Shown: piece by piece, positions 4,660 to 61,952 of the stretch | How positions within the stretch are numbered: the stretch's first letter is position 1 | Layout of the letters: the number at the start of each line of letters is the position of its first letter | Source of the DNA: a virus | Lineage: Duplodnaviria; Caudoviricetes | IMG/VR virus record: IMGVR_UViG_3300021431_000012 | Span: 1-64,000 of that record | DNA: 64,000 bases | Direction: 5' to 3' (one strand) | Translations under genes and position numbers: made by a program | Notes under the pieces: model-generated | Told to the model about the DNA's origin: nothing | The model's input: only the letters and a program-made list of their open reading frames with translations | The model's database searches: none

Positions 4660-5069
4660 GTTAAAATTGTTTTTGCTCCCTTATAAGTTAGATATGATGC
4701 AATGATAATATTTGCAATACAAATTATGTAAATGTATGTCGGTTCAAGTTCGAAGTCTAGGAAGTGCTTTTCCCAAAGATTAACGCCTAAATAACCACAC
4801 GATAGCCTGTTGTAGATACAAGTTTCTATTGCTATGCTTATGATTACTAGAACAACAAGTGATTGTAGGTTGTATTCAATATAGTCGCCTATAAGCCACG
4901 AAAAACGCTTATTGGGTATAAGATACCCATCCCACACCACAAAGTCGCTTGTAGCCATAGAAAATGCCGTTTCCGCATATGAAATCGCAATTAGTCCACA
5001 CACAATGAATGGCAGAACCTTGCCGATTTGGATAAGTAAGATTCTAAACCTATGTGTAAGATTGGGCAT
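4656..5069 (-). CDS. Multi-pass membrane protein (137 aa)
   Basis: Three to four hydrophobic segments. Confidence 0.65.
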   Translation of the reverse strand: MPNLTHRFRILLIQIGKVLPFIVCGLIAISYAETAFSMATSDFVVWDGYLIPNKRFSWLIGDYIEYNLQSLVVLVIISIAIETCIYNRLSCGYLGVNLWEKHFLDFELEPTYIYIICIANIIIASYLTYKGAKTILT

Positions 5070-5266
5070 TACTTTCTTTTGATTTTAATCCTAAAAGTTG
5101 GTGCAATATCGGCTGGCGGCCTACCAGTAATTCGTTTGTACTTTGTAGTGTCGTTTTTTTGTATTCTAGTCGCATCATTCTTTTCAACAATGCGCATTCG
5201 TTGCTGCAAAGTAATCTTTCCTTTGTTGGATAGCCTTTTTCGCCGTTTCTTTCTTTGCTTTGCCAT
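5069..5266 (-). CDS. Small basic protein (65 aa)
   Basis: K/R-rich; operon packing. Confidence 0.55.
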   Translation of the reverse strand: MAKQRKKRRKRLSNKGKITLQQRMRIVEKNDATRIQKNDTTKYKRITGRPPADIAPTFRIKIKRK

Positions 5267-5270
5267 TTGC

Positions 5271-5669
5271 CTAAAACGAATTGTTGTAGTTTTCCCTTGC
5301 TTCTTCGATAAGTTCGTCTAACAACTTTCTTGTTTCGATAATCCTATCTTGTTCCTCTTTTTTCATTCGTGGGCATCCCATGTGCCAGCTCTTGAAATTG
5401 GGAACAGACATGCCGCATTCGTGTGCAAACAATGTGTAGTCATACCAACCAATTAACTCGTCATAATCGTTAAGGTCATTGTCCACACAATATTTGATAA
5501 CATCGCAAAAGTCAAAGAAATAGTCACTAGCACATGCAATTGTGCCGACATTGCCACCCACCCAACTATCGGGTTCATATTGAAAACCATAGTTCTTGCA
5601 AAATACCTGCAAGTATTTCTCGCAGGTATCTGCAAAAACTTTCTTTAGCTTAATTGTATCTTTTTCCAT
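5271..5669 (-). CDS. Hypothetical protein (132 aa)
   Basis: ORF track; operon packing. Confidence 0.7.
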   Translation of the reverse strand: MEKDTIKLKKVFADTCEKYLQVFCKNYGFQYEPDSWVGGNVGTIACASDYFFDFCDVIKYCVDNDLNDYDELIGWYDYTLFAHECGMSVPNFKSWHMGCPRMKKEEQDRIIETRKLLDELIEEARENYNNSF

Positions 5670-5841
5670 TGCACTTCATGAGTTTTTCTTTCGGGTACTT
5701 GACGAGTATTCCACGCATCTTTCCGCGATTGAAATTCACGGTTTCATAAATTCCTTCTTTAATCCTATAATAGATTTGTTGGCTTGTGACCTTTTCAAGT
5801 TTTGCCACTTCACTAACTCCCAATAATTCGTATTCTCCCAT
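5650..5841 (-). CDS. Small HTH (excisionase-like) DNA-binding protein
   Basis: LLGVSEVAKLEKVTSQQIYYRIKEG fits a MerR/Xis-type HTH; start moved to the ATG at 5841. Confidence 0.55.
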   Translation of the reverse strand: MGEYELLGVSEVAKLEKVTSQQIYYRIKEGIYETVNFNRGKMRGILVKYPKEKLMKCNGKRYN

Positions 5842-37805: not shown

Positions 37806-39089
37806 TTAAGCGTCTGCGGTGGCAATGTCCACTACAACGTGGTACGGCGACTCGGTGAGGACGGGTGCATAGCGACCGATAACGTCGGTGTGATAGGACT
37901 TCAACATTCCATTCGGTGTGACCTTGTTAATCACATAGAGGAAATTCTGAACCTTTGCCAACGAGAACTGGATGCCGCTGTTGACCTCGCCCGACTGCAT
38001 GAGCTGAACGTCTGCGGTCTTTGCGTGAACAACAACACCTGCCATGCCAAGAGGACGGAGTACAACCGTGTTGGGCTTCCAACCACGAACCGTAGTAGTA
38101 GTGGTGATACCTTGGACGGTTTGCTGCTCGCGAACAATGCGAATCGGCGAAATCTTGGAAATCGGCGAACGGCTATATTCAACAAGTTGCTCCCATGTGA
38201 TAGAAGAAACCTGCGTCGAGGACTGACCATTCTGAACGATAACCACCTTGTCCGTGCCATAAAGGGCAATGTAGCGATTGACCTCGGCAATGAAAGCGGC
38301 GTTCTTCAGAAGAACATTCACTACGGTATCCCAAGGAATATCCCACTCGAACGGAGTGCCATCAGGGATGTAATTAGCGTTCTTAAAGTCTTCCTCAATC
38401 TTGCGCATCTGCTCGGGGATGTCGGCTGCGGCGGCTGTCCACACCGATGCGCCTGCGGTCTTGTAGTTGGCAAGGGGAATGTAGGCATTTTGGTTGGTGA
38501 TAACACCGCTAAAGCCTTGTGTGGTAGCCGTACCACCGCCAACTTGTGTAAGTGCGGTTGTGTTGCTATAAGCACCACCACGCGAAAGAACCATAGCTGC
38601 CATGTTCGACAGGCGGAGGTTGTGCGACTTGATAAGGTCGGCAACGCCACGAACAAAGCCTACAACAAGATTTTGGTCGCTTGCGTTGAGTTCGCGAAGA
38701 CGAGCCTGGAGTTCCAACTTGGACATAGACGTTTCGAAAAGACCCTTACCATACTGGTAGATAGAGCCCGTTTTCTCCGTCCAACCCTCGTTGTCAAGTT
38801 GCATCGTTTCGGACAGAGGAGCCATTGCGTCTGCCATAGGAATGGCGCGGTTGATGCGTTGGCGAACAGTCCATGCGGGATTCTTCTTGAGGTCGGCAAG
38901 TTCAACGTCATACTCGTTACCTTCTACGGCAAAATGCTCCTGCCAGAAGAAAGAATTCTCTTCGATTTCGATAGTGTTGTCAATAAGCGTCTGGAGGAAA
39001 CCTACGTTTGTTCCGTCCATAAAGCCACGCTGATAGAGCTTTTCAATAGCCTCATCGGGTGTCCATGCGTATTTATAAGCGTTAGGCAT
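37806..39089 (-). CDS. Major capsid protein (427 aa)
   Basis: Size, position after scaffold and decoration genes, strongly biased codons. Confidence 0.85.
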   Translation of the reverse strand: MPNAYKYAWTPDEAIEKLYQRGFMDGTNVGFLQTLIDNTIEIEENSFFWQEHFAVEGNEYDVELADLKKNPAWTVRQRINRAIPMADAMAPLSETMQLDNEGWTEKTGSIYQYGKGLFETSMSKLELQARLRELNASDQNLVVGFVRGVADLIKSHNLRLSNMAAMVLSRGGAYSNTTALTQVGGGTATTQGFSGVITNQNAYIPLANYKTAGASVWTAAAADIPEQMRKIEEDFKNANYIPDGTPFEWDIPWDTVVNVLLKNAAFIAEVNRYIALYGTDKVVIVQNGQSSTQVSSITWEQLVEYSRSPISKISPIRIVREQQTVQGITTTTTVRGWKPNTVVLRPLGMAGVVVHAKTADVQLMQSGEVNSGIQFSLAKVQNFLYVINKVTPNGMLKSYHTDVIGRYAPVLTESPYHVVVDIATADA

Positions 39090-43946: not shown

Positions 43947-44306
43947 ATGGGATGGCTTGAATTTGGATTAAGTATTGCCACATTGGTTTTCGGAGGCGGT
44001 TGGTTTGTGTACTATCGAGCCAACAAAATGAAAGCCTATGGTGATGCTTGGGAATCACAACAACATGTGTACCAAAACACTATTTCCGACTTGGAGCGTT
44101 CTTGTGAGTTCATTCGTAATGATAGGGATTTGCTTCGTAGAGAAAATGAGGAACTTAGACGTGAAAATAGAGAATTGCGTGAAAAGATAAACCATCTTGA
44201 AACAGTGATTCTAGACATTCGCAAAGAAATGGCTAGGCAAGGAAGGCGCATCGAATCTCTCACAAATAAAACCAAGAAATCAAAGAAAAAAGAGGAGGAA
44301 GAATAA
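43947..44306 (+). CDS. Single-TM coiled-coil protein, putative holin-like lysis protein
   Basis: N-terminal TM, basic residues after it, long heptad tail; abuts the putative endolysin gene. Confidence 0.55.
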   Translation: MGWLEFGLSIATLVFGGGWFVYYRANKMKAYGDAWESQQHVYQNTISDLERSCEFIRNDRDLLRRENEELRRENRELREKINHLETVILDIRKEMARQGRRIESLTNKTKKSKKKEEEE

Positions 44307-44749
44307 TGGAATTACTATTAAAAAGGATAGCACGCAAACCTACCTATACCATTGGCAACCTATATGTCAATGGAAAGAAAGTTTGTGACACGCTAGAAGA
44401 CTATGATAGAATCCATTTTGGCGGCTCTAAAATCCCAGGAAAGACTGCAATCCCATGTGGGCGATACGAAGTGGTGTTGAACAACTATTCGCCCAAATTC
44501 GGCAGCAAAGAGCCTTATCGCTCAATATGTGGCGGATGTGTGCCATTGATTAGCAATGTGCCAAACTTTGTTGGCGTGCGCATTCACATTGGAAACAAGG
44601 AAAGTGACACAGACGGTTGCCCGTTGGTAGGCTACAACAAAAGAGTCGGCATGGTTCTAGATTCGCGACAGGCATTCGCAATGCTTATGAACAAGTATCT
44701 TACGCTAGCGCGTAATAGAAAAGAAAAGGTATATATAACAATAAAGTAG
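44306..44749 (+). CDS. DUF5675-family protein, putative endolysin
   Basis: MELLLKR...YTIGNLYVNG...CDTLED...IPCGRY...RIHIGN...TDGCPLVG. Confidence 0.7.
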   Translation: MELLLKRIARKPTYTIGNLYVNGKKVCDTLEDYDRIHFGGSKIPGKTAIPCGRYEVVLNNYSPKFGSKEPYRSICGGCVPLISNVPNFVGVRIHIGNKESDTDGCPLVGYNKRVGMVLDSRQAFAMLMNKYLTLARNRKEKVYITIK

Positions 44750-51117: not shown

Positions 51118-51519
51118 ATGAAAAAAGCATTGGTATTTATAACAATAGCATTCATGGTGCTATCTTGTGCAACCAAAACCAAAATCGAATATGTAGATAG
51201 GGAGGTTGTTAAGGATAGAATGCATTATGTTCATGACACGTTAAGGGAAATCACCCGTGACACCATTGAACATAATGTGTTTATGCGTGGTGACACCGTG
51301 TTTGATGTCAAGTATGTCAAGAGCGTACAATGGAAAGACAAAATTGTTGAAAAAACCGACACGATTATCCGTGATTCTATCCAAGTGCAAGTGAAAAAAG
51401 AAATTGTAGAAAAGAAAGTAATTCCAAAATGGTGCTACATTTCTTTGCTTATTTGTGGATTATTTGCTATCTTTGCAATTATTAAGTTGATTTTATGGAA
51501 ACAAGTTCATTCGGTTTAA
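51118..51519 (+). CDS. Lipoprotein with C-terminal TM, putative unimolecular spanin
   Basis: Signal peptide ending VLSC (Cys17); beta-rich middle; C-terminal hydrophobic helix. Confidence 0.65.
   Translation: MKKALVFITIAFMVLSCATKTKIEYVDREVVKDRMHYVHDTLREITRDTIEHNVFMRGDTVFDVKYVKSVQWKDKIVEKTDTIIRDSIQVQVKKEIVEKKVIPKWCYISLLICGLFAIFAIIKLILWKQVHSV
51444..51475 (+). promoter_or_regulatory. Consensus promoter embedded in the spanin-like gene, upstream of the giant tail gene
   Basis: TTTG (51444-51447) - N20 - TATCTTTG (51468-51475), 20 nt before the ATG at 51495. Confidence 0.65.
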
Positions 51520-54500
51520 ACCAAAATTTCCAGATATACAAGGATGTGGACGGTGTGCAAACGCCGTTCCACAATCTTGTTTTAAGAAAGTCGGTAGTTG
51601 ATAGTGTAGTAATGTCATTGGGTGACAAAATCACTGGTGATGTCTATTACATTAACAACCACTTAGATGTATCAATGCAAGAATATGTCGTTTACAATGG
51701 CATTAAGTATTCATTGGTAAATCCACCTACAATTGTAAAGGAAGGCATTGTTAGCGACAATTCGGAGTTGCGTGGCATGACCAAATACTCGTTTGAATTC
51801 TACCACCCGATGTATATGCTATCAAGCATTCCTTTTACTGATGTTGCGGTTAGTAACGATGAAGCAAGGTATCTTTCCGAGAATCGCAACTTTAGTTGGA
51901 TGGGTTCACTTGTTGACTATGTTGCAAAGCTAAACAAGAATCTTGAAAACACGGAATGGGTAGTAGCCATTAGTGATGATAGTGGCGTGCAAGCCAAAAG
52001 ATTCGTTCTAAGCGACGTTCTTTCTTTCGACAATAACTTTATAAGCGACGCGTTAAAAACCGCTTACGACACGTGGGAAGTGCCTTTTGTGATAGATAAG
52101 ACCGATGCTTATGGTAACAACAAAAAGTTTTTGATTCTTTTTGGCTTGCCTAGCAATGAAATCTATGAAACAGATTCGCATGGTGACCCAACCGAAACGC
52201 CCTTTGTTTTCCACTACGGAAAAGGCGTCGGCTTAAAGAATAATTCTCGCACACCGAAGAACAACAAGATAGTTACACGCATTGTTGGCTATGGTAGTGA
52301 AAACAACATTCCCTATGGCTACCCACAAATTATTTGGCAAGGTGACCAATCATGGGAATACACATTGAACAACACGCCTGGTGTTCAAGAAATAAGCATT
52401 GGTGGCGAACTTGTTTCGGCAACATCATATCCTATCTATGACGGCATTGTTGGTGGTAGGCATGTAAGACTAATCAAGCACCCGTTCCAAAGAAACCACC
52501 TTATGCCTAGTGTCTACACGGATAGGGTGAACAAAAAGGTAAATCCTTTTGCCGCGAATTTCAATCCTAACATTGAACTTGTAGACTACTATGATGCGGA
52601 CGGCACTTATCCAAACGAGATTAATCCGCTAGCCCCGTCTTGCGAAATACACGAATTTGAAAAGATAAAGCCAGAACTTGGAACGGCAAAAATTATAAGT
52701 GTTGCGCCTTATGATGAAGCAGCAGAAAAATACATTTCATACTCCACATTTGAACAATACATCAATGCTATTATTGATGGCGACAACACGCCACAACGGG
52801 AGCATGATGTGCTAACAACACTTCTTGACGAAATTAACCATGGTACGGAAACTTACCACGACTCTTTCAATGGCGGCACATACGGCTACGAACTAGACAT
52901 GACTAGCGATGAAACATATTACTACATCAAGTATGTTTCTAGCAATAGCAACTTTGAATACATCGTTCTAAAAGATGCGCATGCAGTTCCGCCCGTTGTT
53001 TGGGATGACACAATGGATGATGACGGCAACTATAAGCAAAGCTATTTTAAGCTAACATTGCCGCGTCTTGACTTTGACATTTACGCTTGTGCATCTATCA
53101 CGGAAGAAATGTCTATTGCCATGCGTAGTGGTGCATGCATTGGCTGCACATTCCAAGTGCAAGTAGATTGGGAGGATTACAAGAAGAATTTCTTTAATGT
53201 CGATGGCGTTTTCGACCCGATTCCACATACAACCGACGATGACGGTCACGTTCGCGACATTAATAAGTACCCGAATAGCGAAAACGGTTCTATCACACTT
53301 ATTGTTCAAAAGGACAACAATACTTTTGGCATATTAATGCCTAACACATACCAATATCCGAAAGCGGACGATGACTTTGTGATTCTTGGTATATCATTGC
53401 CTACATCATACATCACAAACGCTGAGGAAAGACTAGATGAGGCTATGCGTGAATACATGTTGGAAAACAATGTGTATTACTACGACTACCCTTTGAAATT
53501 TGACGAGCATTTCCTTGCCACACACCTTGGCATTCTTCGCCAAATGCGAAACAACACTATTGTGCGATTCCAATTTGGCAACGAACCACCGATGGCACTA
53601 TATATCAAGCAGCTTACGGTTAAGTTCGGTGAAAGTGTATTGCCGCAATATGACATCACGCTCACCGATGATGTTGAAATTGTTCTCAATCAAATTGGAC
53701 AAGTAACGGAAGATGTCAGTCGCCTTCGTGTGCAATTAGCAGAAATCCAAAAATATTATCTTGGTGACTATGTTGATGCCATGAATGGCAAGCTATCACG
53801 CATTGTTGATGACGTTGCTCTTGGTCGTATCACATTCCAACAAGGATTGAATTCTATTGGCAACATAATCTTGCATAGCGAAATCAAATCCAACGGCTTT
53901 GTTTCTGGCATGGATGGTACTGGCCGTGGATGGCGAATAGACCAACTTGGTAATGGCGAATTAGAAAGTCTTCGCGTCCGTTCCTACTTGGAGGTTGTGG
54001 AATTGCTTATCAATCGTCTTCAAGCACAAGAGGGTGATACATTGTTCACAGACAATGACCAAATTGAATACGTCAAAGAGAAAGTAGTCAATGATGTAAC
54101 GTACTACATTCTAACACTAAAGGAAAAGTGGGAAGGTTACTTTACGTCGCAACAAGAAGGAAATATTGTCAAAGGAATTATCAACACGTTGGCAGCAAAC
54201 TATGGTAATGTAAGTGATATTACCGAAGCGCAATGTGTTGAAGCAGATGGACAAAACAAATACTACACATCATGGATGCGTGTTGTCAACCCGTCACTTG
54301 CCGAAGAAACCGTTGGTAGAAACCAAATTGTTGTAGTCCTTTATGGTGATTCAGATGTTCCAGCACAAAGGAATTTCCCGCCATGCGAATTGATGACTAT
54401 TGCTAGGTTTGGTTGCGAGGATGCGCCCGATGGCGCTACCGATGCTCAAAAGGCTAGCGTGGAACGTAGACAAAGACTTTTTTCTATTTCCGTTTCTGAC

Positions 54501-57500
54501 GGTCGTATTTCAAAGCTAACGGGTGTCAACAAGCCGATTCTTGAAGAATGGAACTATGGAACAACGCTTGGCGTTATTCCTGATTTTATCAACAATTGGG
54601 CTATCAAGGAGCGTCTTATTGAGGGACGTGATTACTTGTATGCACAAGGTGTTATTGTCGGCGATTTTATCAAGGTAGACATCAATGGAGCGCCGCTTGT
54701 CAACTATGTTGATGTTGGCGAATGGGTAGACGGGCAAGAATATCTTCACAACGAGTACAATCCCGTAAACCTACAATGGGAAACGCATGATGTATGGCAC
54801 AATCAAGCCAAATGGCGTTGCGAACAACACCAACCCGTTAAAAGTGGCTCTACATTGAGGTATTACGAGCCGCAAGACAATTCGCCCTATTGGACAAAGC
54901 TACTTAGTAGTGGCGAAGGTTCACCAGTGCCATACTACCATGACCAATTCTATAGCTGGTCGGCTTATGCTTCAACTAATTCGCAAACAACGCCTCCGTC
55001 CGATGCCGTTTGGTCACGTTCCATTCCAACCGCAACATCGGGCAAGCCGTACCTTTGGTTAAAAGACCAATTAATGACATGGAATGATAGCACAAAGGAA
55101 TACGACGCAGGTGCTATCTACTACACAAGAATCACTGGTGAGGATGGAACGGGTATTGCCGTTAAAGGCTCTGTTGTTGCCGTTGTAGGTAATGTTTCAA
55201 GCCTTCCGTCAACCGCAAACAACGGCGACCTTGCTATCGTCACGTCAAGTCCATACATCTACATCTATCAAAATGGGCAATGGCAAGAGCGTGGCGATAT
55301 TGCCGACGTGGGCGATTGCTATGTTTATGATGGTGATGGTCACTTGTGGGTATGGAATGGTTCATCATGGCAAGATGTCGGTGTGTTTAGGGGAGAACCA
55401 GGCGTGTCAAGTTACATCCACATTGCTTGGGCTAACGAACTTGATTTAACCGACCAACAAACTGGCAAAAAATACCCGTCAACATTCGTTGTAACAAAAG
55501 AGCCTAATGAAGAATTTCGTTACATGGGTGTTTATGTTGATGACAATGCTGGGGCTGACTCATCTGATGGTACGAAATATGATTGGTCTGAAGTAAAAGG
55601 TAGCGACGCTCCTTATGTGACTAGTTCGCAATCCATATTGCTTTTTGACACAAACAACGATGGGGTTGCGACCTCGACATCTTCGCAGCAATGCACCATA
55701 AAATTATTCGTAGGTGGCAGTCAAGTTGATGTGACAAATGTTACAATACAAAAGCCTATTTATAGCACAGCAACATATGTTATCGACAATGGGGCTGTTG
55801 TGTTAACGATTTCTGTAAATATTAGCACGCCAGAATCGGCATTTGGAGGTCTTTATGGCATTACGGTTAAAGGCACTAAAGATGGCAAAGAATACACGGC
55901 ATACGCATCTATTACGGTTGCGGCAAATAAGGCTGGTGCAGGTGCCATTTTCCTTGACCTTGACAATGAAAACGATTCCATGTTGTATGGTTCTAGTGAT
56001 GACGAAACACCCGTTAGCGGCAATGTTATTTCACAAGGCTACATGTATGACAATGGCAATGATGTCACAAGCCAAGTGTCGCAATGGTCAATTGTTGAAT
56101 CATATGGCTGTACCTATAGCACATCTATTCAGAATGGAAAGATGACCATTACTGGCATGACGGCAACATCTGGATATGCCGTTCTTGAAGCAACTTATTT
56201 AGGGGTTAAATATCGTGCAAAGCTAACCCTCAAAAAGCTCGTTGGTGTAGATAAATACGAAATCATTGTCAACCCTAACGCATTAGGATATTCTACCGAC
56301 ACAATATCTACACCACAGCAAATCCAAATACAAGTTTATAAGACTACGATAACAGGTGAAAGACAAAGAATAACGGCTGCAATACCAGCCGATTATGGTC
56401 TGTATTACTATCAAGGAAATTCAACGTCTGGCACACGAATCACAAGCTATAGTTCTAGTGGCGATTATTGGTATTTTGTGGCAACCGACGTGTCTTCATT
56501 GACGCAATATCGTGTGGCATTGCTTGATGAAAACAATGAAATTCTTGATTCGGAAACAATTCCCATTACAAAGGTTTCAAAGGGCGCGGATGGTGATGCT
56601 GCGGTGGCTTACCAACTTCTACCCACAGCAACCGCATTGAACTTTTCTCGTGGCAATGATGGTGAAACGTTTGTGCCAAGTTCATTGAACATTTCTTGCG
56701 GCTACATGAAAATTGTTGGCGAAGAAATCAAAGACAAGGATGACGGCACAAACGTGCAAGGCACTGGGCTTACCATTGATGGCTACAACTTGTATTTCCG
56801 TAGGCTTAACCAAAATGGAGTGCCGATTGCTTCATCATACACAACGGAAGGTTGGGATTGGACTGGCGGCACTGGAACTACCGCATATTTTATAAAGCAT
56901 AATGGTGTTATTGAGGTTGATGCATATAGTAGTCAAAGTGCTATTGAATTTTGTCTTAGTAGCAACACTCCAAATGCCACAACTAGTGATGACATTATTG
57001 CTATACTAACCGTTCCAATTACGCGAAGTGGCGAAAAAGGTAGCATCGGCAAAATGGGAAAAAATTTCTATTATGCTGGTGAGTGGAATGAAAGTGATGG
57101 TGGTTCGTTTGAGGTAACCGACTATGAAACCCCGTATTTCATGTATAACAACAAGTATTGGGTGTGGGTAGGTGACAATGGCACATACTCTATTAATTCC
57201 ACTAACCGCCCATCTAGTAGTAATTCCGATTGGGAACTTATGGTTACCGATTTCAAATACCTTATTACCGAGGCTATGTTCACAAAATTCGCCAAACTTG
57301 GTGCTGGTATTTTTAACGAAGATTGGATGTTTTCTAGTCATGGAAATGCCTTAGTGACTATCGCCCTTACAGCTAGTACATCATCTAGCGAATCATGGGC
57401 ACGAATAAGTGGGCAAACGGCAATTCAAGTCAAGCAGGGGGCTACTTATTCATTTGTCATTAATTGCAAGACTACGGCATCTGGAAATACATATTCTATT

Positions 57501-58607
57501 CGTCCGTATATTGACGATGGTTCTGGCTATGAACAATCACAAGCACGAATTTGGATAACGTCAACGACGGCGCAAAATTACACATTCAATTTTGTTGCTG
57601 AAAGAACTGGTACATTACTATTCTATCATTATGGCAATGGCACAACATATTCCATAAGAACATATAATAGTTCGGAATACAACAAGGTTACTCCGTCATT
57701 TATGAATGCCGATGAAAGAATATTGCTTGATGCACCAAGAGAAATTAACACAACAACACACACAAGGATTGTTGAAACATCCGTGACTGTTGTTAGTGGT
57801 CTCACGTATAGAATTACGGTAAAAGGATATGCAAATAGTGGAACTTTGCGCGTTAGACCATATTTTAAAAATAGTGGTTCTGCCGCATCTTCTAGTTACT
57901 TGTCAATATCATATAGAACATCAACCACAATCACATACACGTTTACACCAACGTCAAGTGGTGATATAACAATAGATGGCTATATGGCTACATCTGGAAC
58001 GTCGGGGTATGTGGAATATATGTCAATAAAAGCAACCAATCCTTTCATTCCTCGTGTCGCTATTGATTGGCGTAGTGGTTATGCCCACTTCGGCGGTGAC
58101 AATATTCGCTTTAACCCAGACGGCAGCGGTTTCCTTGCAAACAAGAATATTACTTGGGACGAAAACGGCAATTGTATCTTTAGCGGACTGCAAATGAAAC
58201 GAAAGACGGTTGTTAATTCAAGTAATTATCTAAATTATTTAAAGCCAGATGATACATGGGGTTATTCGGAATATGTTTTTGACTTTGAAAAAGCATCAAC
58301 TTGGATGGAAATAGAGTCTTTGCCAAGCAACTTTTCTGGCATTTTAATGCCTATTAGCGGTGATTTTGTCCGTTCACTAGTTGGACAGTCTATATTATTA
58401 TACAACAAGTCTAGCGTTACGATTCCAATCACTGGGAGAACATTTTGGGAAAATGGGAAAACAACAATCCCCGTAACAAACCCTAGCTTTAATAGCACGA
58501 CAATAGCGCCTAATTGCTTTGTGAGATTTGAATGTAAAATTACTATTGACGGGAATGACAATGAATTACTTTATTGGAGTTGTGTAAAAGGAAACATATC
58601 TTCGTAA
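51495..58607 (+). CDS. Giant tail tip / central fibre protein (2370 aa)
   Basis: N-terminal baseplate-hub-like region, coiled coil, many Ig-like beta repeats, C-terminal carbohydrate-binding-like repeats. Confidence 0.8.
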   Translation: METSSFGLNQNFQIYKDVDGVQTPFHNLVLRKSVVDSVVMSLGDKITGDVYYINNHLDVSMQEYVVYNGIKYSLVNPPTIVKEGIVSDNSELRGMTKYSFEFYHPMYMLSSIPFTDVAVSNDEARYLSENRNFSWMGSLVDYVAKLNKNLENTEWVVAISDDSGVQAKRFVLSDVLSFDNNFISDALKTAYDTWEVPFVIDKTDAYGNNKKFLILFGLPSNEIYETDSHGDPTETPFVFHYGKGVGLKNNSRTPKNNKIVTRIVGYGSENNIPYGYPQIIWQGDQSWEYTLNNTPGVQEISIGGELVSATSYPIYDGIVGGRHVRLIKHPFQRNHLMPSVYTDRVNKKVNPFAANFNPNIELVDYYDADGTYPNEINPLAPSCEIHEFEKIKPELGTAKIISVAPYDEAAEKYISYSTFEQYINAIIDGDNTPQREHDVLTTLLDEINHGTETYHDSFNGGTYGYELDMTSDETYYYIKYVSSNSNFEYIVLKDAHAVPPVVWDDTMDDDGNYKQSYFKLTLPRLDFDIYACASITEEMSIAMRSGACIGCTFQVQVDWEDYKKNFFNVDGVFDPIPHTTDDDGHVRDINKYPNSENGSITLIVQKDNNTFGILMPNTYQYPKADDDFVILGISLPTSYITNAEERLDEAMREYMLENNVYYYDYPLKFDEHFLATHLGILRQMRNNTIVRFQFGNEPPMALYIKQLTVKFGESVLPQYDITLTDDVEIVLNQIGQVTEDVSRLRVQLAEIQKYYLGDYVDAMNGKLSRIVDDVALGRITFQQGLNSIGNIILHSEIKSNGFVSGMDGTGRGWRIDQLGNGELESLRVRSYLEVVELLINRLQAQEGDTLFTDNDQIEYVKEKVVNDVTYYILTLKEKWEGYFTSQQEGNIVKGIINTLAANYGNVSDITEAQCVEADGQNKYYTSWMRVVNPSLAEETVGRNQIVVVLYGDSDVPAQRNFPPCELMTIARFGCEDAPDGATDAQKASVERRQRLFSISVSDGRISKLTGVNKPILEEWNYGTTLGVIPDFINNWAIKERLIEGRDYLYAQGVIVGDFIKVDINGAPLVNYVDVGEWVDGQEYLHNEYNPVNLQWETHDVWHNQAKWRCEQHQPVKSGSTLRYYEPQDNSPYWTKLLSSGEGSPVPYYHDQFYSWSAYASTNSQTTPPSDAVWSRSIPTATSGKPYLWLKDQLMTWNDSTKEYDAGAIYYTRITGEDGTGIAVKGSVVAVVGNVSSLPSTANNGDLAIVTSSPYIYIYQNGQWQERGDIADVGDCYVYDGDGHLWVWNGSSWQDVGVFRGEPGVSSYIHIAWANELDLTDQQTGKKYPSTFVVTKEPNEEFRYMGVYVDDNAGADSSDGTKYDWSEVKGSDAPYVTSSQSILLFDTNNDGVATSTSSQQCTIKLFVGGSQVDVTNVTIQKPIYSTATYVIDNGAVVLTISVNISTPESAFGGLYGITVKGTKDGKEYTAYASITVAANKAGAGAIFLDLDNENDSMLYGSSDDETPVSGNVISQGYMYDNGNDVTSQVSQWSIVESYGCTYSTSIQNGKMTITGMTATSGYAVLEATYLGVKYRAKLTLKKLVGVDKYEIIVNPNALGYSTDTISTPQQIQIQVYKTTITGERQRITAAIPADYGLYYYQGNSTSGTRITSYSSSGDYWYFVATDVSSLTQYRVALLDENNEILDSETIPITKVSKGADGDAAVAYQLLPTATALNFSRGNDGETFVPSSLNISCGYMKIVGEEIKDKDDGTNVQGTGLTIDGYNLYFRRLNQNGVPIASSYTTEGWDWTGGTGTTAYFIKHNGVIEVDAYSSQSAIEFCLSSNTPNATTSDDIIAILTVPITRSGEKGSIGKMGKNFYYAGEWNESDGGSFEVTDYETPYFMYNNKYWVWVGDNGTYSINSTNRPSSSNSDWELMVTDFKYLITEAMFTKFAKLGAGIFNEDWMFSSHGNALVTIALTASTSSSESWARISGQTAIQVKQGATYSFVINCKTTASGNTYSIRPYIDDGSGYEQSQARIWITSTTAQNYTFNFVAERTGTLLFYHYGNGTTYSIRTYNSSEYNKVTPSFMNADERILLDAPREINTTTHTRIVETSVTVVSGLTYRITVKGYANSGTLRVRPYFKNSGSAASSSYLSISYRTSTTITYTFTPTSSGDITIDGYMATSGTSGYVEYMSIKATNPFIPRVAIDWRSGYAHFGGDNIRFNPDGSGFLANKNITWDENGNCIFSGLQMKRKTVVNSSNYLNYLKPDDTWGYSEYVFDFEKASTWMEIESLPSNFSGILMPISGDFVRSLVGQSILLYNKSSVTIPITGRTFWENGKTTIPVTNPSFNSTTIAPNCFVRFECKITIDGNDNELLYWSCVKGNISS

Positions 58608-58745
58608 TAGCGCACAAAGAAAACTTTCTGTTCTTGTACTATATCTATATTGTTGAAGGTGTTAGATTTTGGTCTAGCACCTTTTTTGCTTTTTGACACT
58701 TATGGACACAAAGTAGTCCAAGCATGCTATAATGTGTTTTTGGCT

Positions 58746-58753
58746 TACATTTG
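58746..58753 (+). promoter_or_regulatory. -7 promoter element for the Gly-rich/CCC operon
   Basis: TACATTTG, 55 nt before the ATG at 58808. Confidence 0.5.
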
Positions 58754-58807
58754 CAAAAGTAACGCGTTATGTAGTCAAAATTTAAATCATTTAAAACAAA
58801 AAACATT

Positions 58808-59776
58808 ATGGCAGAAATTTATCAACTTCCCGAAAATGGGAACAATGGTAATGCAACCATTCCTTTCTCTATTCCTATTGGCTTTGGTGGCTATGGAAAT
58901 GGTGGCATGTTTGGCAATGGTAATGGCTTTAACTCCATCGCCGACCTCTTTGGTCTTGCAATCATCGCATCCATGTTTGGATGGGGTGGTAATGGCTTTG
59001 GTGGTCTTGGCGGTGGATGGGGCGGCAATGGCGGCGCAGGTTTCATCAGTAATCAGCTCAACAACGATTCTGGCCGCGAGTTGCTCATGAATGCTATCAC
59101 CAACCAAGGCGAAGCATCGCGCACGGCAATTCAAACTCTTTCCACAATGCTTGGTCAGGACTTTAACCTTGTGAACGCAGGTATTCAGTCGGCTCAGAAC
59201 ACGCTCAACCAAATTGCGAACACACAGGGCATGTCAACCTTGCAACTGATTAACGCCGTCCAGGCTGGCGATGCCAACCTTGCTAGCACCATTCAAAAGT
59301 GTTGCTGTGAGCAACAGCTTGCCACATGTCAGCAGACAAATGCTTTGCAAAATAGCATCAATGGCGTAGGTCAGCAAGTTGCCGCAAAAGCAGCAGCAGA
59401 CCAGCTTTCGATGTGCCAGCAGACGTATGCGCTTACCGACACCATGAACCGTAACTATCTTGCTCTTGACAACAAGATTGATGCTCTTGAGTCTAGTCGC
59501 AAAGACCGTGAAATCACTAGCCTTACGGCGCAGGTTGCCAAACTTGAATCGCAGAATTTTACTGCAGGCATCGTTCAGCAAGCCGTTGCTCCACTCAACG
59601 CATCACTTAACTCGCTTGCCCGCGAGGTTGATGACATTAAGTGCAAGCTCCCCGAAACCGTAAACGTGCAATACCCCAATCTTGTTGCCATAAACGCCAC
59701 TCCGTATGTTAGTGGTGGTTTCTACCCCAATGGGTATTACGGCAACGGCTTCGGTGGCAATAACTTTGTGTTCTAA
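58808..59776 (+). CDS. Gly-rich membrane-anchored coiled-coil protein with CCCE motif (322 aa)
   Basis: G/F/N-rich termini, hydrophobic segment IADLFGLAIIASMFGW, heptads, C165-C167. Confidence 0.8.
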   Translation: MAEIYQLPENGNNGNATIPFSIPIGFGGYGNGGMFGNGNGFNSIADLFGLAIIASMFGWGGNGFGGLGGGWGGNGGAGFISNQLNNDSGRELLMNAITNQGEASRTAIQTLSTMLGQDFNLVNAGIQSAQNTLNQIANTQGMSTLQLINAVQAGDANLASTIQKCCCEQQLATCQQTNALQNSINGVGQQVAAKAAADQLSMCQQTYALTDTMNRNYLALDNKIDALESSRKDREITSLTAQVAKLESQNFTAGIVQQAVAPLNASLNSLAREVDDIKCKLPETVNVQYPNLVAINATPYVSGGFYPNGYYGNGFGGNNFVF

Positions 59777-59800
59777 ATTTATGGCATAGGAGGTAAAAGC

Positions 59801-60145
59801 ATGAGTTGTAATTGTAATAACTGCAATATAACAATTAACGCAGGTGGTGAGCCGTATATTGCGAATACACAAGTTGTCGTAGGAACTGACACCGTGAACA
59901 TTGCACTTGGTTGGAGGCGTATTCAGCCGATAGGCAAATTCATTGTACGCATGGAGAATCCTATTCCGTCTGATGCAACAACTACATCTCCAATAACACT
60001 TACATTGAATGGTGTTACACGTCCACTAACCCTTCCAAACGGTACGGCAGTGACTGTGGCGGATATTCTAAACGTGAGTGTTTTCGAGGTTCTGAATGAC
60101 AAGTTCAACGGAATCTTGGCTCTTATGTCAAGAACTATTGTGTAA
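59801..60145 (+). CDS. Beta-rich protein with N-terminal CNCNNC (114 aa)
   Basis: ORF track; second gene of the operon. Confidence 0.75.
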   Translation: MSCNCNNCNITINAGGEPYIANTQVVVGTDTVNIALGWRRIQPIGKFIVRMENPIPSDATTTSPITLTLNGVTRPLTLPNGTAVTVADILNVSVFEVLNDKFNGILALMSRTIV

Positions 60146-60177
60146 AACTAGTGATTAACAATTAAAACAAAACAAAA

Positions 60178-60690
60178 ATGGACTTTCAAAGTTTAGGTAA
60201 CGGCAATCCGTTTTATGTTCTCAAAAAAGGAGAAAAGCCAATCCTTGAGGTTGGTGTGGTGAAATCAAAGTCGCAACCACGCGCGAAGTTTCCGACGCAA
60301 ACGCCAAACATCATGGCTGGCGTTCAAATGCAGCAGGTTGTTGACGTAGTAGTAACAATCAATGGTCGCGATGAAACATTTAGCGAAATACCTATCAATG
60401 TAGAAATCGCAGCCCGTGGAAATGACACGTTTAGCGGTAGTCGTGAAGCTATGTTGCAAGCCGTAGATGCTATGTTACAAACATCTAAAAAAGCACTTGA
60501 CCAAATCCCTTACCACAAGGCGGTAATCTCCGAAAGCGAGAAAATGCTTGAAGTGCTTAATCCACGTTATGCCGAGGAAAAGAAACAAGCAAGGACTATC
60601 AAAGCATTAGAGGAAAGGCAAACCGCTACCGATGCAAAGTTGGATAGCATTCTTTCTATCTTGCAAAAACTTGATTCACCGTCTGCTTAG
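60178..60690 (+). CDS. Hypothetical protein with C-terminal coiled coil (170 aa)
   Basis: ORF track. Confidence 0.8.
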   Translation: MDFQSLGNGNPFYVLKKGEKPILEVGVVKSKSQPRAKFPTQTPNIMAGVQMQQVVDVVVTINGRDETFSEIPINVEIAARGNDTFSGSREAMLQAVDAMLQTSKKALDQIPYHKAVISESEKMLEVLNPRYAEEKKQARTIKALEERQTATDAKLDSILSILQKLDSPSA

Positions 60691-60727
60691 TCTTTTGAAA
60701 GTCCAATCTAAAAAAACATCAAGAACT

Positions 60728-60970
60728 ATGGCATGGATTTTTGTTGACAAGGAAGATGGTGGCTCACAGGAGAAGATGCGCCAGCAGATGCGTCGTTCAA
60801 TGCGTAGCGGTGGTTATCGCTCTTATGGCGGAACTAGTGGCGGTAGTGGAAGCTATCGTGATGGTTATCGCCAAGGCTATAAGCACGGATGGGATGACAA
60901 GGAGATGGAAATGGAAGATGATGACATGGAATATCGCCGTCAGCGTGATAGCCGTGGTCGTTATATGTAA
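60728..60970 (+). CDS. Low-complexity R/G/Y/S-rich protein (80 aa)
   Basis: Start MAWIFVD; RSGGYRSYGG..., GYRQGYKHGW and terminal RQRDSRGRYM. Confidence 0.75.
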   Translation: MAWIFVDKEDGGSQEKMRQQMRRSMRSGGYRSYGGTSGGSGSYRDGYRQGYKHGWDDKEMEMEDDDMEYRRQRDSRGRYM

Positions 60971-60987
60971 TCTATCTTATTCAAATG

Positions 60988-61015
60988 GGGTGGGGTTCTT
61001 GCCCTACCCTTTTTT
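60988..61015 (+). terminator. Intrinsic terminator inside the operon
   Basis: GGGTGGGGT-TCTT-GCCCTACCC followed by a T-run. Confidence 0.75.
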
Positions 61016-61042
61016 ATTTATCAATTAACAAAAAAAAAGAAA

Positions 61043-61459
61043 ATGGGAAATACATTATCTAACTATTGCATACCAGAGGACATGGAGCAATATTTATCTT
61101 TCTATGGTTGGCATTTCAACAAGAACTTGTGTAAGTTTGCAACCGATATGATGAAAAGGGAAGATAATGCGTCTGGAATGCTCAAGAAAATTACTCCAAT
61201 GAAAATGGAGGAATTGAAAGAATTGCTAGAAAAGCATAAAATAGAACTAGAACCGAATGATTGGTATGATGCACTTTATCTAGCAAACATGGTAAAGGCT
61301 GACTATTGGGGAAGTAGCATTGAAGACGAGGAACACATGGCGCGTTACATTGAAGATGTTATTTGCGATGTAGACGGCTATGAGGGAATCGTGTTTTCGC
61401 GCTTTCTTGCCGATTGTACTTGTAAAGGCGTTGTAATATTTTGGGACATGATGATTTAG
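61043..61459 (+). CDS. Helical hypothetical protein (138 aa)
   Basis: YLSFYGWHFNK...YDALYLANMVKADYWGSSI...FSRFLADC. Confidence 0.8.
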   Translation: MGNTLSNYCIPEDMEQYLSFYGWHFNKNLCKFATDMMKREDNASGMLKKITPMKMEELKELLEKHKIELEPNDWYDALYLANMVKADYWGSSIEDEEHMARYIEDVICDVDGYEGIVFSRFLADCTCKGVVIFWDMMI

Positions 61460-61463
61460 GCTT

Positions 61464-61850
61464 ATGATTACAAAGTATTTAGAGGTCGGTGACGGTGATT
61501 GGGGAATCTTGTTGAACTACAATTTCGACGAAACGGATTACGAAGACATTTATGCCGCATTATATTCTTTTGGCATGAATGACAAGAATATTCGCAAGTC
61601 CCTTAACATTCTTTCCGCGCCGAACACTGGTATGACGATTTCCAATGATGCTTTGCGCATGACAAACATATATATTGGAAAGCAAACGTCGGTAGGTGAA
61701 TTTTGGAGCACCATAAACCACGAACTATATCATGCCACAACCGCGATTATTGATTACTATGGTGAACCATACGACCAAGAGCCAGCGGCATACCTACAAG
61801 GCGAATTAATGCGGCTAGTGGTAGAGGAAATTGGCGAGCCATGCTATTAA
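61464..61850 (+). CDS. Minimal zincin-type (HExxH) metalloprotein
   Basis: HELYH (residues 86-90) plus a downstream Glu in DQEPAAYLQG (E106). Confidence 0.65.
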   Translation: MITKYLEVGDGDWGILLNYNFDETDYEDIYAALYSFGMNDKNIRKSLNILSAPNTGMTISNDALRMTNIYIGKQTSVGEFWSTINHELYHATTAIIDYYGEPYDQEPAAYLQGELMRLVVEEIGEPCY

Positions 61851-61903
61851 ATTCCTTTCTAAGCGACTTTTATAATCAAAGGTGGGTGGTTATAGGGAAA
61901 GGC

Positions 61904-61952
61904 AAAGGAAAGCCGTTAGACGCAAAATAAACGCGGTCTACGGCTTTCCTTT
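61904..61952. terminator. Bidirectional terminator
   Basis: AAAGGAAAGCCG...CGGCTTTCCTTT long stem between convergent units. Confidence 0.75.

Follow-up and report, generated by a model that had tools for sequence, protein, structure and literature searches.

What do six phage genes do that recur together, in the same order, in phage after phage, when none of their products has a characterised homologue? The question is raised by positions 58746-61952 of a 64,000-nt stretch (hereafter the window, i.e., the whole of the DNA analysed) from a tailed phage of the Caudoviricetes (IMG/VR record IMGVR_UViG_3300021431_000012, positions 1 to 64,000), where six co-oriented open reading frames (ORFs), here called g1 to g6 and collectively the cassette, are all present as described in an earlier sequence-only reading of the locus. 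The ORF lengths and motifs given there, namely CCC at residues 165-167 of g1, the MSCNCNNC start of g2, the RQRDSRGRYM end of g4 and HELYH with E106 in g6, were all verified. PHROG places g1, g2, g3, g5 and g6 in families without function, Pfam places g5 only, and searches of PHROG, Pfam, PADLOC, NCBIfam and the Protein Data Bank (PDB) returned no characterised homologue for any of the six proteins. No defence model of PADLOC-DB matched any of them (E <= 1), NCBIfam gave no relevant match, its sole row being a far-sub-threshold match of g4 to FliH, and the nucleotide sequence of the cassette matched nothing among phage records. The literature on DUF7841 (the family of g5), MPTase-PolyVal, Bacteroides phage C3_41T2LP and crAss virion proteomes likewise yielded nothing on the cassette proteins, and no proteome of a carrier phage came to light. 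The answer favoured here, tentatively and at less than even confidence, is that the cassette forms a portable operon of late accessory genes in Bacteroidales phages, the products of which would act on the envelope of the infected cell as neither a part of the virion nor core lysis machinery.

The genes of the cassette co-occur far beyond chance. An iterated profile search of 107 fetched loci, seeded on g5, recovered the full order g1-g2-g3-(g4)-g5-g6 in 73, most of the others having it in part, and this order is maintained across 25-35% protein identity; in crAss-like genomes, g1 and g5 stand a constant 1.5-2 kb apart (tblastn). Within the Crassvirales, the cassette is carried by cr272_1 (Suoliviridae), cr271_1 (Intestiviridae) and cr116_1 (Steigviridae), and in part by cr109_1. 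Outside this order, the same gene run is present in Bacteroides phage C3_41T2LP under the locus tags C341T2LP_00036 to 00031, the chromosome of Segatella copri N016-9 harbours it between a lysis cassette and a tyrosine integrase adjoining host genes, and contigs of Parabacteroides segnis BX2 (in a phage region) and P. leei GYB001 also carry it. The capsid proteins of the carriers are unrelated at the level of BLAST and their lifestyles differ. By tblastn, the cassette was not found in crAss001 or p-crAssphage, though cr116_1, which like crAss001 belongs to the Steigviridae, carries it. Such patchy recurrence across phage lineages indicates an accessory module moving between them. The sequence-only reading had proposed a dedicated, self-contained system and had mentioned similar clusters in other gut phages; the locus searches bear out both points, the same neighbourhood being conserved across many phage loci. 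Besides, an assembly labelled Alistipes finegoldii contains five g1 homologues, on contigs C2, C17, C30, C32 and C93, each with 2-11 in-frame TAG codons, and these contigs probably come from crAss-like phages with a recoded TAG and were binned together with the bacterial genome.

The six genes are one transcription unit, with its own host-type -7 box, a clade-specific upstream palindrome, and internal and terminal hairpins. The -7 box TACATTTG (58746-58753, plus strand) fits the Bacteroidetes consensus TAnnTTTG and has no TTTG -33 partner; its position is kept in nine of ten relatives, and a box of the same type also precedes g1 in the Segatella prophage. A palindrome, GGACACAAAGTAGTCC (GGAC-N8-GTCC; 58704-58719, plus strand), lies 26 nt upstream of the box as a candidate operator or activator site; being kept in most close relatives and present as a single copy in the window, it suggests a dedicated regulator, and the combined pattern of palindrome and box would be expected by chance 0.09 times. 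A second palindrome, TAACGCGTTA (58760-58769), stands just downstream of the box, with related GTAAC..GTTAC palindromes in relatives; as it shows no RNA fold, it is, if functional, more likely a DNA site. In the gap between g4 and g5, a hairpin with a 10-bp G+C-rich stem and a T-run (60987-61010, plus strand; z -4.4, the z scores reported here, from -4.4 to -5.7, relating folding energy to that of shuffled sequence) is kept among relatives with both arms of the stem changing (by eye), and is therefore probably an attenuator yielding more of g1-g4 than of g5-g6. The unit ends in a strong hairpin (about 61902-61951; -27 kcal/mol, z -5.7) located between the cassette and convergent minus-strand genes. 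The promoter element claimed earlier is upheld, and hairpins are present where an internal terminator (60988) and a terminal, putatively bidirectional one had been proposed. In other carriers, small helix-turn-helix (HTH) genes, either DnaA_C-like or excisionase-like, are found just upstream of the cassette.

The predicted membrane protein of the cassette is g1 (58808-59776, plus strand; 322 aa; phrog_16490). All homologues share the same layout, i.e., an acidic N-terminal tail (Gly-rich in the g1 of the window), a hydrophobic segment (W/F-rich in most), Gly/aromatic stretches, an NNDxGRxLL motif, a helical, Q/N/A/T-rich coiled-coil region of about 200 aa, and a C-terminal tail that is Gly/Tyr/Asn- or Cys-rich among homologues and, in the window, Gly/Tyr/Asn-rich and ending in Phe. 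Across 34 sequences with a mean identity of 35%, L111 and C165-C167 are invariant, which indicates a real, constrained protein. An Arg directly follows the hydrophobic segment in about 60% of the homologues; considered by eye under the positive-inside rule, this residue and the acidic tail would favour an N-out/C-in orientation. The PDB profile search gave sub-threshold matches only, all of them to trimeric coiled coils (coronavirus heptad repeat 1 (HR1), HA2, a short tail fibre and VP4), those to coronavirus HR1 and influenza HA2 having E values of 0.03-0.3, below significance; these matches explain the labels “spike glycoprotein” and “viral fiber” in crAss records. No holin match was found in PHROG or Pfam, and the Atlas look-up returned unnamed viral clusters only, without a structure. 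From the homologue alignment and the profile search, the architecture first proposed for g1 appears plausible: one segment may well span the membrane, the coiled coil is of the trimer type, and the CCC is conserved.

With its one hydrophobic segment and, behind it, a long cysteine-containing coiled coil, g1 could also be a core lysis protein, either a large holin resembling T of phage T4 or a new unimolecular spanin or fusion protein across the periplasm. The T4 holin T and the i-spanins are single-pass membrane proteins with a large helical domain containing cysteines, as proposed for g1; g1 often adjoins lysis genes, and its sub-threshold HR1- and HA2-like matches would fit as well. Against this stand the lysis genes that the carriers, this genome included, already encode (holin, endolysin and spanin-like genes in the others), the lack of a lipoprotein partner within the cassette, the many related phages devoid of the cassette, and the charges around the hydrophobic segment, which by eye favour a cytoplasmic coiled coil and hence a topology opposite to that of i-spanins; a core lysis role of g1 is therefore considered very improbable. 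As a spanin, g1 was rejected since no lipobox or signal peptide was seen by eye in any of the six proteins and since separate spanin-like genes, with a lipoprotein signal and a C-terminal transmembrane (TM) segment, lie upstream in the S. copri and P. segnis carriers; as sole holin, it was rejected in view of its 322 aa and of the separate holin-like genes in the same two carriers.

The neighbourhood of the cassette in other carriers often includes lysis genes. In the S. copri prophage, a holin-like gene, a GH108 endolysin gene and a lipoprotein/TM spanin-like gene lie directly upstream of g1; in P. segnis, the genes upstream of g1 encode Phage_holin_4_1 (7e-07), Peptidase_M15_3, a spanin-like protein and a DnaA_C-like HTH protein; in cr109_1, cr116_1 and cr272_1, lysis genes adjoin the cassette; and in BF503P2, a g5 homologue on its own directly precedes holin, endolysin and spanin-like genes. 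As holin, endolysin and spanin genes are present separately, the cassette would not be core lysis machinery, and the idea that it is this phage's own lysis module was discarded given the lysis genes at 43947-44749 in this genome and the full lysis cassettes in other carriers. With the lysis cassettes and accessory genes of other phages (t/rI/rIII of T4; lysA/B/C of P2), it shares a position often directly downstream of lysis genes, at the end of the late region; it differs from them in having no match to a lysis family, in comprising six genes of which five are without membrane or export signals, and in including a dedicated zincin-like protein. As to the phage studied here, a likely lysis pair follows right after the portal gene, consisting of a 119-aa protein (43947-44306) with an N-terminal TM segment, a charged coiled coil and weak matches to Rz-like spanins and a “hol-like” PHROG, and of a 147-aa DUF5675 protein (44306-44749; 1.6e-28) resembling, by eye, genes labelled L,D-carboxypeptidase/transpeptidase in crAss-like records. 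Searches of this genome for M15_3, Amidase_2 and GH108 were empty.

A different answer is suggested by g2 (59801-60145, plus strand; 114 aa; phrog_31654). The protein had been called beta-rich from its sequence, and its AlphaFold2 model is indeed all-beta, with a predicted local distance difference test score (pLDDT) of 86. Foldseek found no match to this model in the PDB at E <= 0.001 and the PDB profile search gave nothing meaningful, whereas VIA-align paired it best with a Pa193 fibre/baseplate chain, in its C-terminal domain (9b45_2; Z 5.4), and also with tailspike C-terminal domains. In BFVD, its own family came first, followed by more than 25 long tail-fibre, receptor-binding, collagen-like and hyaluronidase fibre proteins, all of them weak matches (E 3e-4 to 1e-2, TMq about 0.5). 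The modelled fold of g2 thus weakly resembles distal tail-fibre domains, which slightly amends the earlier statement that none of the six proteins resembles virion, lysis or replication genes. By sequence comparison, g2 is also a sharply bounded allelic hot spot: a block covering nearly all of it (59704-60108) has 57-80% nucleotide identity to a relative that is 93-100% identical over the rest of the cassette, and the two g2 proteins are 71% identical. A joint replacement of the g1 tail and g2 as a single unit was rejected, the g1 tail differing mainly by low-complexity indels and only g2 being clearly replaced. Searches for g2 homologues returned almost only close relatives and no fused forms of at least 337 aa, the latter being weak evidence. 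A natural fusion of 294 aa between a g2-like domain and DUF7841 does exist in a CrAss-like virus (BFVD A0A8S5LXP6).

Taken together with the position of the cassette directly after the gene for a 2370-aa tail fibre, the fold and the variation of g2 give substance to the possibility that the cassette encodes an accessory virion fibre or an ejection/needle protein. The trimeric shaft would then be g1, with its hydrophobic N-terminus anchored in the particle or entering the target membrane, g2 would form the distal end that binds, g3, g4 and g5 would serve as adaptors or chaperones, and g6 as a maturation protease; the profiles of g1 and g3, which match trimeric coiled coils only, albeit below threshold, are consistent with this. 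The paper on the crAss001 structure (PMC10172136) states that head fibres and cargo proteins vary or are patchy among crassviruses and that uncharacterised proteins may fill these roles, and it shows disulfide bonds in crAss001 virions, which would be compatible with an accessory fibre. Like accessory fibres such as gp8.5 of phi29, gp21 and gp29 of crAss001 (PMC10172136) and those of the reovirus sigma-1 type, the cassette would combine a trimer-type coiled coil and a separate small beta domain as candidate tip with a patchy, dispensable distribution and cysteines that could cross-link chains. Unlike them, it has a membrane-like segment in g1 and spans unrelated virion lineages under a promoter of its own; none of the searches with the cassette proteins uncovered homology to gp21, gp29 or gp8.5. 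The same cassette in phages with capsids unrelated at the BLAST level, and in a prophage, is hard to square with a part docking on one virion; crAss001 lacks it, though another phage of that family carries it; it comes with a promoter and terminators of its own, and in some carriers, e.g., C3_41T2LP, it is found among replication genes; and the fold matches of g2 are weak and without any Foldseek counterpart in the PDB at the threshold above, its profile showing no similarity to the C-terminal 400 residues of the fibre that this phage encodes. A virion fibre or needle is, on balance, a doubtful explanation, albeit one to be taken seriously.

The replacement of g2 alleles is also reminiscent of an arms race, and a role in superinfection exclusion or inter-phage competition can be envisaged in which a membrane-anchored complex of the moron type blocks the entry of rivals, with g2 conferring specificity and g6 cleaving incoming proteins. 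This would agree with a self-contained unit endowed with a promoter, candidate operator palindromes and terminators, with the small HTH genes often just upstream, with the patchy distribution and apparent horizontal movement, and, in the S. copri prophage, with a site flanked on one side by the lysis genes and on the other by the integrase end, as is typical of morons. Known exclusion morons (gp15 of HK97, Imm and Sp of T4, Cor and Llp) are likewise self-contained, near tail-fibre or lysis genes, membrane-anchored, patchy and mobile; they differ, however, in consisting of one or two genes and in having no coiled coil, CCC motif or peptidase partner. Six genes are many for a known exclusion system. 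In addition, the carriers include Crassvirales and other phages without an integrase in the stretches examined, and PADLOC gave no match. An exclusion function is for these reasons regarded as rather unlikely; it and envelope remodelling, both put forward in the sequence-only reading, are still candidate roles.

The two following genes provide potential partners of g1. The product of g3 (60178-60690, plus strand; 170 aa; phrog_28898) is modelled (pLDDT 85) as a small SH3/EF-P-like beta-barrel (residues 1-86) followed by three helices (89-165), the C-terminal one being long, in agreement with the coiled-coil C-terminus claimed for it. Its profile has sub-threshold or borderline matches to trimeric coiled coils only, i.e., fibrinogen, the P22-type needle gp26 and paramyxovirus F, the last of which aligns at about residues 440-520 with the C-terminal helix, below threshold. 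Foldseek found nothing for the g3 model in the PDB at E <= 0.001, and a VIA-wide search gave generic SH3/EF-P-like barrels only (Z 6.5). As for g4 (60728-60970, plus strand; 80 aa counted from the start codon common to relatives), it consists of a small helix, then an acidic and then a basic low-complexity part, and ends in RDSRGRYM; almost every locus has an ORF of this type (60-112 aa, acidic then basic) between g3 and g5, with GRY, RYSY or RRMR as C-terminal motif of the family. In cr109_1 (5129-5734), a natural fusion of a g5 domain with a g4-like acidic/Arg-rich tail is located upstream of g1.

It is the composition of g4 (low-complexity R/G/Y) and of the Gly/aromatic-rich ends of g1 that had inspired the idea of a condensate or compartment, for instance around phage DNA, built by prion-like and RG-rich proteins and regulated by proteolysis. 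Composition is its only support and does not by itself constitute evidence: the low-complexity stretches are short and border on folded or coiled-coil parts that are well conserved, most g4 homologues are not RG-rich but acidic-basic, with a short conserved motif at the C-terminus, and domain-library scans revealed no nucleic-acid-binding domain or NTPase in the cassette. No result points in this direction, and the idea is regarded as highly improbable.

Beyond the internal hairpin, g5 (61043-61459, plus strand; 138 aa; phrog_38431) belongs to DUF7841 (PF25223), which it matches over profile positions 1-112 of 114 with an E value of 3e-25 and 89.1 bits against a cut-off of 25.2. It is the most widespread member of the cassette, its profile finding 939 clusters at 50% identity among 1.84 billion representatives, nearly all of which stand alone and measure 120-145 aa; no meaningful match came from the PDB profile search. 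The chimeric proteins P0185 and P0206 (g1 N-terminus with g5) and P0233 (g3 with g5) were not used as evidence of fusion, being likely deletion or assembly chimeras, P0206 and P0233 because both contain the same g5 fragment.

The last gene, g6 (61464-61850, plus strand; 128 aa), starts 4 nt past the g5 stop codon. In 32 diverse homologues with a mean identity of 34%, W13, H86, E87, H90 and E106 are invariant; at the level of motif, this corresponds to HExxH (HELYH, residues 86-90) with E106, 15 residues after H90, as candidate third zinc ligand, and the zincin pattern pointed out in the sequence-only reading is consequently conserved. The g6 profile finds 1357 proteins. No curated Pfam peptidase family scored above cut-off in the 39 homologues scanned, which gave sub-threshold matches to Reprolysin_3, M78, DUF6782 and eCIS_core around the motif. 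Peptidase_M78 (PF06114; cut-off 22 bits) was approached by two of the 39 (best E 0.039 with 14.2 bits, then E 0.16 with 12.2 bits), to which g6 may be distantly related, and an Atlas lead to the same family scored 0.87, the Atlas look-up itself returning unnamed viral clusters only. No PolyVal peptidase model was found in 32 homologues (E <= 0.05) or in the window protein (E <= 1), and the names “PolyVal metallopeptidase”, given to the C3_41T2LP homologue, and “IrrE N-terminal-like”, given to one UniRef homologue, were unconfirmed at curated thresholds. Apart from a weak alignment to myroilysin over a strand and a helix (E 0.4), the PDB profile search yielded nothing meaningful. As such, g6 is an orphan minimal zincin-like protein with a generic zincin motif, and a putative peptidase. 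The ImmA/IrrE proteins (Peptidase_M78) resemble it in having HExxH and a downstream Glu within about 130 aa and in being coupled to an upstream small helical protein, but g6 is below the M78 cut-off and its partner g5 is a DUF7841 protein instead of an Xre-type HTH protein.

How the parts would work together can be outlined under the favoured reading of an envelope-directed accessory operon. The g1 protein would insert once in the cytoplasmic membrane, N-out/C-in, and display a coiled coil of the trimer type, some 200 residues long, which the invariant Cys-Cys-Cys would hold together or load with metal. Produced in similar amounts, g2 (a variable beta-sandwich), g3 (a barrel with a trimer-like helix) and g4 (acidic-basic with its GRY tail) may dock on g1, while g5 and g6, expressed at a lower level past the hairpin, could process or regulate the complex. 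The likeliest role would be an accessory one at the envelope, connected with lysis or release and exerted late in infection. Portability over unrelated capsids and lifestyles, together with an own regulation and one predicted membrane protein, favours an action directed at the host over a part of the virion, and the envelope is further suggested by the adjacency to lysis genes in independent lineages, the hydrophobic segment of g1, the motif of g6 and the conserved internal hairpin. Several points weigh on the other side. Five of the six proteins are without signal peptide or membrane segment, and no cassette protein matched a characterised lysis, exclusion or defence family. The lysis genes of this genome are 14 kb from the cassette, and the adjacency seen elsewhere may simply arise because both sets of genes occupy the end of the late region. 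The fibre-tip-like fold of g2 and its variation, which is like that of a specificity determinant, fit a virion fibre as well or better. Finally, the membrane insertion, topology and oligomeric state of g1, like the protein contacts and expression timing assumed for the cassette, are deduced from sequence.

A bolder proposal, held to be possible but unlikely, is an undescribed machine, i.e., a split trimeric assembly, class-I-fusion-like or fibre-like, anchored in the host membrane via the Gly/aromatic-rich hydrophobic peptide of g1 and serving Bacteroidales phages of any morphology. The HR1-like coiled coil of g1 with its Cys3 staple, a g3 helix comparable to the stalk of paramyxovirus F and g2 as an exchangeable tip would be its parts, and a minimal zincin of its own, acting with DUF7841, would mature or switch it. 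In the linear order of its parts (hydrophobic Gly-rich peptide, heptad repeat, Cys cluster, second heptad repeat), g1 is indeed similar to class I viral fusion proteins and spanins; unlike class I fusion proteins, g1 is devoid of a second membrane anchor and of a signal peptide, and its matches are sub-significant and typical of Q/N-rich coiled coils. Tailed phages, moreover, have no envelope to fuse. If true, such a machine would act on the envelope, by remodelling or breaching it, or keep rival phages out, and would do so in a way that differs from holins, spanins and known exclusion proteins.

Regarding the phage itself, the carrier is a complete 75.7-kb genome with direct terminal repeats. 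Its 427-aa capsid protein (37806-39089, minus strand) shares 54% identity with the protein annotated as major capsid protein in C3_41T2LP and has no other match among 50,697 phage records, which places this phage outside the Crassvirales, in a small lineage. The upstream tail-fibre gene spans 51495-58607, and its transcript ends in a hairpin with a T-run (58655-58684, plus strand; 13-bp stem, -16.8 kcal/mol, z -5.4); among the minus-strand genes on which the cassette converges is one for a RusA-like resolvase. About 2.3 kb downstream of the cassette, just past the end of the window, a minus-strand ORF of 164 aa (64194-64337) has a sub-threshold match to a DnaA_C-like HTH (5.8e-6), and a similarly placed gene of C3_41T2LP is annotated as “chromosomal replication initiator protein”. 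In C3_41T2LP, a gene annotated as an I-HmuI-type homing endonuclease (5006-5626) separates g1 from a small DnaA_C-like gene; none of the other carriers examined shows this layout.

No viruses are more abundant in the human gut than the Crassvirales and their relatives, most of whose accessory genes are unexplained. The six-gene module is among the most widely shared accessory modules, occurring in phages of Bacteroides, Parabacteroides, Segatella and probably Alistipes. It offers several experimental handles, namely (i) the cultured lytic carrier C3_41T2LP, which infects B. uniformis, (ii) the prophage carriers S. copri N016-9, P. segnis BX2 and P. leei GYB001, (iii) the invariant residues C165-167 of g1 and H86, E87, H90 and E106 of g6, and (iv) the natural allelic hot spot of g2. 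Whichever reading holds, solving the role of this module would explain a common portable function in the biology of gut phages and their hosts.

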